Shown here: piece after piece, positions 7,165-15,865 of the stretch
Layout: every line of letters starts with the position of its first letter
Position numbering within the stretch: position 1 is the first letter of the stretch
Source of the DNA: Candidatus Pacearchaeota archaeon
GTDB lineage: Archaea > Nanobdellota > Nanobdellia > Pacearchaeales > GW2011-AR1
Reading direction: 5' to 3'
NCBI GenBank assembly: GCA_018304175.1
Contig: JAGVWT010000001.1
Coordinates: 1-63,194, forward strand
DNA: 63,194 nucleotides
Translations under genes and position numbers: made by a program
Notes under the pieces: model-generated
What the model was told of the DNA's origin: nothing
The model's database searches: none
Seen by the model: only the letters and a program-made list of their open reading frames with translations

Positions 7165-7620
7165 TTATTCATTTTCATCTTCTTCGTCTCTCCTTATGAC
7201 TTTTATGTTATCTATTTTTACCGTTACTGGAAATTGAACAACAGCACCAAGGAGGCTTACAACAACTTCTTCCTTCTGTTTATCAACTCTTAAAACTTTT
7301 GCTTTTTCTCCTTTAAAAGTTTGTCCTATCATCTCAACAATATCTCCTTCCTTAATTGTTATGTCAGCAACCTCTGGCTCAAACATGTTTTTTATTTCGG
7401 CATAATCAACATCCTTTCCAATAATTCCTTTTATGTATGGTAGATTGAAAACAGCTTCTTCTGCTGACTCGCGATCTTCTGCTTCCAAAACTAAATATCC
7501 CCTAAGTCCATGAGTTCTTGAAACAGAATAAACATTCAGGTTTTTTTTCCCTGCTCTTTCAGCTATTAAATCTAAAGCTCTTTCTTCTTTATTCGTCGTA
7601 ACCTTTATTATAAATATCAT
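7165..7620 (-). CDS. spt5: transcription elongation factor Spt5 (NusG family)
   Basis: NGN domain (LRGYLVLEA) plus KOW (IKEGDIVEMIGQTFKGEKAKV). Confidence 0.95.
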   Translation of the reverse strand: MIFIIKVTTNKEERALDLIAERAGKKNLNVYSVSRTHGLRGYLVLEAEDRESAEEAVFNLPYIKGIIGKDVDYAEIKNMFEPEVADITIKEGDIVEMIGQTFKGEKAKVLRVDKQKEEVVVSLLGAVVQFPVTVKIDNIKVIRRDEEDENE

Positions 7621-14482: not shown

Positions 14483-14773
14483 ATGGAATACATATATGCG
14501 GCACTTTTACTGCATAAGACAGGAAAAGAAGTCAATGAACAGAATGTGAAAAGTGTTGTTGCAGCTAGCGGTTTGCAAGTAGATGAATCAAAAGTGAAGT
14601 CACTTGTAGCTAGTTTAAAAGGTGTTGATATCGACAAAGAGCTTGAAAGCGCGTCTTTGGTCACAACAACAATAGCAGCCCCTGCATTGGGAGCAACGAC
14701 TAAGAAAGAAGAAGCACCAAAAGAAGAAAAGAAAGAAGCTGCAGCAGAAGGACTTAGTGCTTTATTCGGATAA
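14483..14773 (+). CDS. rpl12: 50S ribosomal stalk protein P1 (aL12)
   Basis: MEYIYAALLLH start and EEKKEAAAEGLSALFG end. Confidence 0.97.
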   Translation: MEYIYAALLLHKTGKEVNEQNVKSVVAASGLQVDESKVKSLVASLKGVDIDKELESASLVTTTIAAPALGATTKKEEAPKEEKKEAAAEGLSALFG

Positions 14774-14857
14774 TTTTATTTTACAACGAAACACTAAGTC
14801 CCTCACTTTCATAGTCGAGAGTCTGAAAATTTTTAAATTGCGAAAACATTTATTTTT

Positions 14858-15004
14858 ATGAAGAAAAAAGAGATTTTCGGTATTTTAGCAGTAGTATCAT
14901 TAATATCAATGCTATTAACTCCTATTGATTCAACTTATTGGATTTATTTTTTAGTAATAGGAATATTTTTTGGAATTTTGTGGATAAAATCTAAAGCAAA
15001 TTGA
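14858..15004 (+). CDS. candidate 48-aa two-helix membrane peptide
   Basis: Missed by ORF track. MKKKEIFGILAVVSLISMLLTPIDSTYWIYFLVIGIFFGILWIKSKAN; BRE/TATA-like GAAAATTTTTAAAT about 25 nt upstream. Confidence 0.6.
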   Translation: MKKKEIFGILAVVSLISMLLTPIDSTYWIYFLVIGIFFGILWIKSKAN

Positions 15005-15008
15005 CACC

Positions 15009-15079
15009 TGTGTAGCATGAGGGGTACTACATTTCCCCTTACACTAACCCCGATGCAAACGAGATTAGTTCGCTACACA
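15009..15079 (-). ncRNA. candidate three-way-junction RNA with loop-loop pairing
   Basis: Minus strand: P1 TGTGTAGC/GCTACACA (8 bp), P2 CTAATCTCG/CGGGGTTAG (9 bp, 2 G-U), P3 AGGGG/CCCCT; loops UUUGCAU and AAAUGUAGUA can pair over 6 bp. Locally GC-rich. Confidence 0.4.
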
Positions 15080-15087
15080 CAAACACG

Positions 15088-15107
15088 GCCTGTATAGCTC
15101 AGTGGTA
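15088..15107 (+). repeat. duplicated 5' end of tRNA-Thr
   Basis: GCCTGTATAGCTCAGTGGTA matches 15154-15173 at 19/20; a shorter copy CCTGTGTAGC lies at 15007-15016. Confidence 0.9.
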
Positions 15108-15153
15108 AACTGAAAACTTTTATACTGAATTGTTTTCATACCACTTCGAGAAT

Positions 15154-15272
15154 GCCTGTGTAGCTCAGTGGTAGAGTAACTGATTCGTAGACAAAGCAAA
15201 GCTTTAACTTTTCCGCAAGCTTCGCGTTGCAGAAAAATCAGTAGGTCGGGAGTTCAAATCTCTCCACAGGCT
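15154..15272 (+). tRNA. tRNA-Thr (CGT) with 47-nt intron at 37/38 (15190-15236)
   Basis: GCCTGTG/CACAGGC acceptor, GCTC/GAGT D stem, ACTGA/TCAGT anticodon stem, TT-CGT-A loop, GGGAG-TTCAAAT-CTCTC T arm, U discriminator; TATA TTTTATA at 15118-15124. Confidence 0.88.
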
Positions 15273-15598
15273 TAATCTTGTATAATTCTCTCTAAATTTC
15301 TTTGTATTGTTAATCTCCTTTTATGTGCCTCATGAAACTCACTTGTTGGGATATTAGAAAAGCCACATTGTTCATCTGTTTCAGACCAGCTATGTTTTAT
15401 GGCATAAGGAAAAGCTTTCAATAAATCATCCCTATTAGAAAACTCGATTTTTCTATGAATAACTCTAAATTCATCAATAGTGTACTGATGAAGAATATAA
15501 TTTTCTTTTTGTCCTATTGAAATTAAAAGAGCTTCGACATAACTTCCTGATTCATCGTCAGCTGCGAATCTTAGTTGTTTCACTTGATAATCCATCAT
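15272..15598 (-). CDS. orphan hypothetical protein between two convergent tRNAs
   Basis: 108 aa; TATA-like box at about 15620; stop codon shares base 15272 with the tRNA-Thr discriminator. Confidence 0.55.
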   Translation of the reverse strand: MMDYQVKQLRFAADDESGSYVEALLISIGQKENYILHQYTIDEFRVIHRKIEFSNRDDLLKAFPYAIKHSWSETDEQCGFSNIPTSEFHEAHKRRLTIQRNLERIIQD

Positions 15599-15639: not shown

Positions 15640-15799
15640 TACGCCGTCACCAGGAATTGTAAGGAAACGGCGTTTCCTTGACATTCAACTTTCCCTCGAT
15701 ACTGAAACCAACTTCTAAACCCCTTGACGAAGTTGAGTTTAAACTGCTTTACGTGGTGACTGCAAAATTTTCAATTTTGATTACGCCGTCACCAGGAAT
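15640..15799. repeat. 18-bp direct repeat of the tRNA-Ser 3' end flanking a 124-bp insert (att-like)
   Basis: TACGCCGTCACCAGGAAT is identical at 15640-15657 and 15782-15799. Confidence 0.9.
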
Positions 15800-15865
15800 C
15801 GAACCTGGATGCCCGTGAGGGCCCTGGGCTCAAACCAGGTGGAATACCATTCTCCGCATGACGGC
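15784..15865 (-). tRNA. tRNA-Ser (TGA)
   Basis: GCCGTCA/TGACGGC acceptor, G discriminator, CCTGG-TT-TGA-GC-CCAGG anticodon arm, long variable arm GCCC-TCAC-GGGC, CCAGG-TTCGATT-CCTGG; D arm slightly irregular. Confidence 0.88.

Follow-up and report, generated by a model that had tools for sequence, protein, structure and literature searches.

We propose, with a probability of roughly 0.7, that the 71-nt three-way junction at 15009-15079 is the folded core of a gene-less cassette of ~81 nt (15007-15087) lying in the original transcription unit of tRNA-Thr(CGU). The window, by which we mean the whole 63,194-nt stretch analyzed, is contig 12 of a DPANN archaeal genome of 544 kb (32% G+C, 88% complete). 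The start of the tRNA is repeated at 15007, 15088, and 15154, and thus the closing stem of the junction consists of a leftover piece of the tRNA gene and its complement; immediately behind the first comes an unrelated second cassette built to the same plan. With equal confidence, we posit that the element is a modular cassette with a fixed order of parts that would move by site-specific DNA insertion. The initial annotation had considered both a stand-alone structured noncoding RNA and a mobile-element sequence of unknown class. The latter pointed in the right direction, as a repeated insertion cassette has one of its copies here; the former is not supported, given a closing stem of this origin and no mark of an RNA gene in its own right. 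The parts of the locus are listed in Table 1.

Table 1. Features of the tRNA-Thr(CGU) locus and its neighbors (positions in the window)
Feature	Position	Strand	Description
48-aa hydrophobic protein gene	14858..15004	+	Upstream neighbor, outside the cassette
Stump 1	15007..15016	+	Leftover copy of tRNA-Thr positions 2-11 (CCTGTGTAGC); 5' strand of the closing stem
P1	15017..15041	+	Conserved module hairpin, TGAGGGG / variable loop / CCCCTTA; the G-rich hairpin of the initial annotation
Box 1, CCCCTTACACTAACCCC	15035..15051	+	Region of the "UGUAA linker" on the other strand; (nearly) invariant columns in alignment A1
P2	15043..15069	+	Variable second hairpin; the long hairpin (loop UUUGCAU) of the initial annotation
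Arm B, GCTACACA	15072..15079	+	Target-specific; pairs with tRNA positions 4-11 in the stump to give the 3' strand of the closing stem
Spacer of cassette 1, CAAACACG	15080..15087	+	Homologous to the spacer at the tRNA-Thr paralogue on contig 13
Cassette 2, without the module	15088..15153	+	Same architecture: stump 2, hairpin, arm B2
tRNA-Thr(CGU)	15154..15272	+	Intact; ~49-nt intron at the canonical position; RF00005, 58.5 bits
Cassette 3	15640..15781	+	At the 3' end of tRNA-Ser(UGA) (15784-15865, minus strand)

The sequence CCTGTGTAGC occurs as three direct copies, at 15007, 15089, and 15155, and the closing stem forms by pairing of 15009-15016 with 15072-15079. Between these strands, the 3' side of P2 carries a second box (AAACGAGATTAG, related to TTTAAACYGATT) that is common to cassettes of other subfamilies. 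Cassette 2 begins with a longer stump (15088-15107, 20 nt, matching tRNA positions 1-20 with one mismatch) and ends with an arm at 15139-15150 (TACCACTTCGAG); it also contains a strong BRE/TATA-like sequence, GAAAAC-TTTTATAC, at 15112-15125, which places the TATA at -36 to -29 of the tRNA. Cassette 3 repeats the design at the other end of a gene: its stump (15640-15657) is an 18-nt copy of the tRNA-Ser 3' end (the last 16 nt plus 2) located 142 nt downstream, and the 124 nt between the copies hold a P1-type hairpin starting at 15658, then box 2 (GTTTAAACTG) and the arm TGGTGAC. The 48-aa open reading frame upstream is a conserved small-protein gene: its syntenic counterpart in G001, a genome of the same genus, is 58% identical and has no cassette behind it. 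A type I toxin-antitoxin arrangement at this locus is therefore unlikely.

The fold itself is real. On the minus strand, RNAfold closes 15009-15079 with an 8-bp stem and places within it a 10-bp hairpin with the loop UUUGCAU and, after a GUA linker, a G-rich hairpin of 5 bp (loop AAAUGUAGUA); the energy is -28.2 kcal/mol (z = -4.5), and none of 200 shuffles equals it. The three-way junction described earlier is therefore present where it was placed and exceeds chance, with the correction that the long hairpin has 10 bp rather than 9. The plus strand forms the mirror junction at -21.9 kcal/mol (z = -4.0); since both strands fold beyond chance, stability does not pick one of them. The kissing loops proposed for this junction fare less well: the 6-bp complementarity exists in the window copy, but 11% of composition-preserving loop shuffles reach it, and three paralogous copies show 2 bp at most. 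A loop match that is at chance level and absent from the paralogues provides no evidence of a tertiary contact.

Do the wobble pairs select a strand where stability does not? The initial annotation counted four G-U pairs in favor of the minus strand, whereas the minus-strand fold contains only two, both in the 10-bp hairpin; the plus strand of the window copy has one, in the lowest pair of the G-rich hairpin. With all copies considered, the minus strand is not favored by this asymmetry. The lowest pair of P1, read in module (plus) orientation, is G-U in 16, A-U in 11, and G-C in 1 of the 28 distinct copies, and in those 16 the other strand would carry C-A. On the opposite strand, two G-U pairs occur in P2 of both the window copy and its contig 5 paralogue, and the wobbles of closing stems run in both directions, split about 4:6. 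As a counterpoint to any strand-specific account, including one built on a folded single strand of DNA, wobble pairs single out neither strand. What does emerge from the comparison of copies is support for the P1 hairpin from covariation: 91% of the cells in alignment A3 are paired, four pairs are changed on both sides, none of 500 shuffles reaches the observed share of paired cells or the covariation score, and slid controls are clearly lower. The search for homologs and covariation yielded 13 genomic copies, further metagenome copies, and a covarying P1.

These observations bear on the proposal of a stand-alone small RNA from the minus strand with kissing loops and an SRP-Alu-like or riboswitch-like fold, a reading to which we give next to no credence. 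The stable minus-strand fold, the retention of the two G-U pairs of the long hairpin in the contig 5 paralogue, and a palindromic TATA-like box at 15118-15125 that could in principle fire leftwards all fit it. Against these stand the chance-level loop pairing and its lack of conservation, a closing stem that is a tRNA gene fragment with its complement and varies with the neighboring tRNA, a module that is sense to the host tRNA in 35 of 41 tRNA-linked metagenome copies, and the absence of the element from the orthologous locus in the same genus. Nor does an SRP resemblance survive: Rfam contains no family matching 15009-15079 at the gathering score or even at E<=10, the SRP covariance models (Archaea_SRP RF01857 and relatives) find nothing in 14700-15500 at E<=10, and the genome encodes its own SRP RNA elsewhere (contig 11, 854-1118, 74.9 bits). 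The "UGUAA linker," taken at first for a joint like the SRP U-turn, belongs to box 1 of the repeat family read on the other strand. A purine riboswitch was likewise considered and rejected, having no Rfam match and, as neighbors, a small membrane-protein gene and a tRNA gene rather than the leader position of a purine gene. What the window element has in common with the SRP Alu domain and the purine riboswitch is only a general shape, a three-way junction with two hairpins; it differs from them in having neither a covariance-model match nor a conserved loop-loop pairing, in a genome with a separate SRP RNA. In sum, the SRP-like, kissing-loop, minus-strand reading is unsupported.

The module that the window element carries consists of the G-rich hairpin and box 1 (TGAGGGG, loop, CCCCTTACACTAACCCC) and occurs in 13 copies in the 544-kb genome; the window copy scores 53.5 bits against model R1. 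Four copies, including that of the window, lie upstream of tRNA genes; in each, a copy of tRNA positions 1-13 comes before the module, and a second hairpin, the stump complement, a spacer of 8 to 21 nt, and the intact tRNA come after it. Another four lie behind tRNA genes in inverted orientation, with a stump that copies tRNA positions ~52-73. The others comprise one in the intron of tRNA-Asp(GUC), one in RNase P RNA, one in frame in Trm5, and two in intergenic DNA. Among 60 relatives, the module has 0 and 1 copies in two same-genus genomes and few in the 58 others; the module is amplified in this lineage. It is also found in 112 metagenome contigs, with at least 82 copies in metagenomes. Of 82 distinct metagenome copies, 21 lie upstream of a tRNA in sense, 9 are intronic, 5 lie downstream in sense, and 6 are antisense. 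For the other 41, no tRNA was called within 160 nt; some of these adjoin intron-containing tRNAs missed by the caller, and others lie in coding genes or RNase P RNA. The module pattern had no match in viral contigs, and literature searches turned up no description of the family. The cassette family is widespread and apparently undescribed.

Some settings of the module deserve separate description. The tRNA-Asp(GUC) gene (contig 14, 126735-126871) has a 65-nt intron that holds the module within a perfect helix-bulge-helix-bulge-helix motif; because of this intron, the whole-genome tRNA pass missed the gene. An orthologous intron bearing the module is present in G022, a genome of another genus. 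In protein genes (the copies at contig 16, ~560-740, and at loci L084, L086, L100, L120, L144, and L146), the module is antisense, in frame, and directly before the motif IV strand "FDxIxx(D/N/M)xP," and the hosts are three SAM methyltransferase families, Trm5/TYW2, RsmB/F, and a small MTS type. The DNA at these sites (ATCAAA / TCGAA) resembles the reverse complement of the tRNA T-loop, a sequence likeness that suggests that the methyltransferase genes offer secondary target sites.

How constant is the cassette around the module? Among 33 tRNA genes, a 5' stump accompanies nine, a 3' stump accompanies six, and two have both. We examined 18 cassettes, drawn from these stump-bearing loci together with a contig 4 locus outside the 33 and the first cassette of the window, and all 18 have a single polarity: stump, hairpin module, target-complementary arm, spacer, intact gene. 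In finer detail, the order is stump, P1-type hairpin, pyrimidine box, second hairpin with the TTTAAACYGATT box, arm, spacer, and gene, and it is kept even where the P1 sequence is quite different. The order is identical at tRNA 5' ends, where the module is sense, and at 3' ends, where it is inverted. The cassettes measure ~66 to 170 nt, with stems of 6 to 12 bp. The duplicated repeats are 10 to 25 nt long and are bounded by the end of the tRNA, starting within 4 nt of +1 or ending 1 to 2 nt past the discriminator base, as expected if the tRNA segment borne by the cassette were the only sequence shared with the target. Such a fixed order from stump to gene is what site-specific insertion would give, and a folded single strand is a possible substrate for it.

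At 15 loci or more, the arm differs according to the tRNA. Examples of stump and arm are TGTGTAGC/GCTACACA, CTGTAGC/GCTACAG, GATTTGAAC/GTTCAAATC, ATTGAAC/GTTCAAT, GTCACCA/TGGTGAC, AACTTAGC/GCTAAGTT, and AATCCTACCG with its complement. When arms are cross-tabulated against targets, the match to the arm's own target is the highest or tied for the highest in most rows. One exception is at ~3.0 kb on contig 14, where the arm matches 11 nt of the paralogous tRNA on contig 8 but 6 nt of its own stump, and both repeat copies carry the local allele; this locus has more the look of a duplicated target site. Among metagenome copies in which stump and gene are not identical, there is one case of an arm that matches the stump and another of an arm that matches the gene. 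Such joint variation of arm and stump across tRNAs is not explained by a transposon that has fixed ends and simply duplicates its target. Miniature inverted-repeat transposable elements (MITEs) were rejected as a candidate class: the cassettes have neither conserved terminal inverted repeats nor a target-site duplication of fixed length, and their arms vary with the target.

The insertion character of the cassettes shows where a related genome lacks them. The syntenic tRNA-Thr(CGU) of the same-genus genome G001 has neither cassette nor intron, and the same is true of tRNA-Thr(CGU) in G004, from another genus. In RNase P RNA (contig 17, ~7350-7420), a 61-nt insert with the module lies between P5 and P7, where G001 has a 9-nt joint; the insert is closed by pairing of CCAC in the 5' flank with GTGG at the insert end. 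The Trm5 insert, in frame and 58 aa long, is missing from Trm5 of G002, G004, and G006. A metagenome relative has an insert in its RNase P RNA with a CCACC/GGTGG stem that covaries. At the population level, metagenome contig L096 has two tandem 100-nt units (stump plus cassette) where the assembly has one (contig 8, 22950-23074), with flanks 100% identical to contig 8 on both sides; this difference reflects either a copy-number polymorphism or a collapse in the assembly. Population contigs from four DNA runs carry the same allele at the window locus, with no empty allele, circle, or polymorphism, and the joints found in these contigs come from tRNAs of other organisms. A search of metagenome contigs for the pattern of the empty-site allele gave no match.

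Partial duplications of tRNA ends are the classic footprint of tyrosine integrases, the genome has two tyrosine recombinases, and the duplicated segments (13 to 25 nt) are of the size of a minimal core site. Could the cassettes, then, be att-site scars of tRNA-integrating viruses or plasmids that have been mostly deleted, with no mobile minicassette at all? We regard this as unlikely. It would have to account for about 18 units of uniform size (66 to 170 nt) with common hairpin modules in a single 544-kb genome, and for the module occurring without any duplication in tRNA introns, in RNase P RNA, and in frame in methyltransferase genes. Further, no integrase fragments lie beside the cassettes, viral contigs have no match to the module, and double-stranded attP sites do not have a target-complementary arm.

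The promoters of the tRNA genes provide another view of which copy of the gene end came first. In cassette-free tRNA genes of this genome, a TATA-like hexamer recurs with great regularity, its start lying at -30 to -32. Of the nine 5' cassette loci, four have the hexamer before the stump at -30 to -33, and four more have it at -35 to -37. Because in about half of the loci the TATA is at its native distance from the stump, not from the gene, the stump marks the old gene start. Judged from this promoter spacing, transcription probably runs through the cassette in sense and makes it a long leader. At the window locus, cassette 2 brings its own BRE/TATA, and thus cassette 1 may lie outside the main pre-tRNA; the TATA-like box of cassette 2 may serve as the present promoter of tRNA-Thr.

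A transcribed leader invites an explanation at the RNA level, in which the cassette would be a pre-tRNA element, either spliced out through a bulge-helix-bulge or regulating or chaperoning tRNA-Thr maturation. The native promoter before the stump at many loci, the sense bias of the module in metagenomes, and its presence inside the perfect tRNA-Asp intron motif and in introns of relatives are in keeping with such a role. We nevertheless consider it very unlikely. Neither the window cassette nor the other seven module-bearing end cassettes contain a strict bulge-helix-bulge with a sensible product; a scan of the 13 module loci on both strands gave only the tRNA-Asp intron as a convincing case, the rest being AT-rich chance matches. 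The four 3'-end copies in the genome are antisense to their tRNA, copies also occur in protein-coding genes, and orthologous tRNAs work without a cassette. The ~49-nt intron of tRNA-Thr(CGU) itself has no strict bulge-helix-bulge motif, and a relaxed scan found none either.

Insertion at the DNA level has several described counterparts, each of which matches the cassettes in part. Integration of CTXphi leaves one functional target and two inverted, nonfunctional target-like copies (PMC3089051), and both CTXphi attP(+) and integron attC are folded single-stranded sites for tyrosine recombinases (PMC3089051, PMC3442271, PMC4792948). The cassettes are similar in that in all 18 a target-like copy is followed by a loop and an inverted copy, after which the remainder of the element leads to a regenerated target, and in that structure is conserved more than sequence. 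They differ in that their stems are far shorter than the 28-bp dif-like site and their target is the end of a tRNA gene rather than dif or attI. By analogy with these systems, the cassettes may pass through a single-stranded intermediate and depend on a recombinase.

The cassettes also resemble the tRNA-targeting integrative elements of archaea and bacteria, which use tyrosine integrases and leave partial tRNA duplications as attL/attR, and their integrase-less, cis-mobilizable derivatives: insertion is at a tRNA end, the incoming copy of that end keeps the gene intact, and the direct repeat (13 to 25 nt) is confined to tRNA sequence. In contrast to those elements, a cassette is ~66 to 170 nt long, has no genes and no linked integrase, carries hairpins beside the stump and an internal arm complementary to it, and occupies both tRNA ends, introns, RNase P RNA, and coding genes. 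A third comparison is with the Rickettsia palindromic elements and the MITE/REP repeats, which are short, gene-less, hairpin-forming, and multicopy, occur in RNA genes and in frame in protein genes, and are amplified in particular lineages. The cassettes share their shortness, hairpins, copy number, sites, and lineage-specific amplification; unlike MITE/REP repeats, they have an arm tailored to each target and a strong preference for tRNA gene ends. Archaea also have bulge-helix-bulge tRNA introns, for which "intron transposition" is known in the Thermoproteales. The published work on Caldiarchaeum includes a model of tRNA gene disruption (PMC3293823). Like archaeal mobile tRNA introns, the module occupies true introns (in tRNA-Asp and in tRNAs of relatives), and related sequences are found at different tRNA positions, whereas the window copy lies outside the mature tRNA, has no bulge-helix-bulge, and is flanked by a duplicated gene end. 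None of these nearest described systems combines the small size, the regenerated gene end, and the target-complementary arm.

In the mechanism that we propose, the cassette would spread as DNA, inserting site-specifically and leaving the tRNA gene whole. It would bring along the duplicated tRNA end as its att-like stretch of homology, in the manner of integrase attP sites, where a tRNA segment provides the homology with the target. Following the logic of CTXphi attP(+) and integron attC, the stem of stump and arm could act as a double-stranded mimic of the target in a folded single-stranded insertion intermediate. The same stem may also mask the stump in the pre-tRNA leader and so prevent it from competing with the real 5' or 3' end for the acceptor stem. 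The stem would serve as an insertion mimic, as a mask for the stump, or as both. In addition, the arm would make the insert a closed domain of its own, as happens in RNase P RNA and in the tRNA-Asp intron. Which enzyme might do the work? The genome has two tyrosine recombinases, one of them XerA, both on contigs other than that of the window. The second, accessory recombinase has a close homologue in 1 of the 60 relatives and does not co-occur with the module, and the repeats around it contain no module-like site. Neither a Y1 (IS200/IS605) transposase nor a reverse transcriptase was found in the 88%-complete genome. As a counterpoint to the proposed mechanism, no mobilizing enzyme is linked to the family, and stems of 6 to 12 bp are shorter than a full tyrosine-recombinase core site.

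A bolder version of this model, which we put forward as a tentative idea against the odds, is that DPANN archaea harbor, in these cassettes, a new class of mobile DNA without genes. A folded single strand or a guide-like arm, with a stem that reproduces the end of a tRNA gene, would direct a host recombinase or repair enzyme to tRNA ends, to T-loop-like sites in methyltransferase genes, and to RNase P RNA, and the inserted units would seed tRNA introns and tRNA gene fragments.

If the family is as it appears, a minimal archaeal genome has, at about half of its tRNA genes, small parasitic inserts whose construction spares the host from harm: each would resupply the gene end that it displaces, and its arm would pair with the leftover stump. 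Such a family bears on the origin of archaeal tRNA introns, split tRNAs, and tRNA gene fragments, on the persistence of mobile DNA in genomes with almost no transposase genes, and on the processing of pre-tRNAs with long structured leaders. There are practical consequences for annotation as well. The regular TATA hexamer can serve as a reference when promoters are called in this genome, and the cassettes would account for many DPANN annotations of "structured RNA" or "partial tRNA" that are false.
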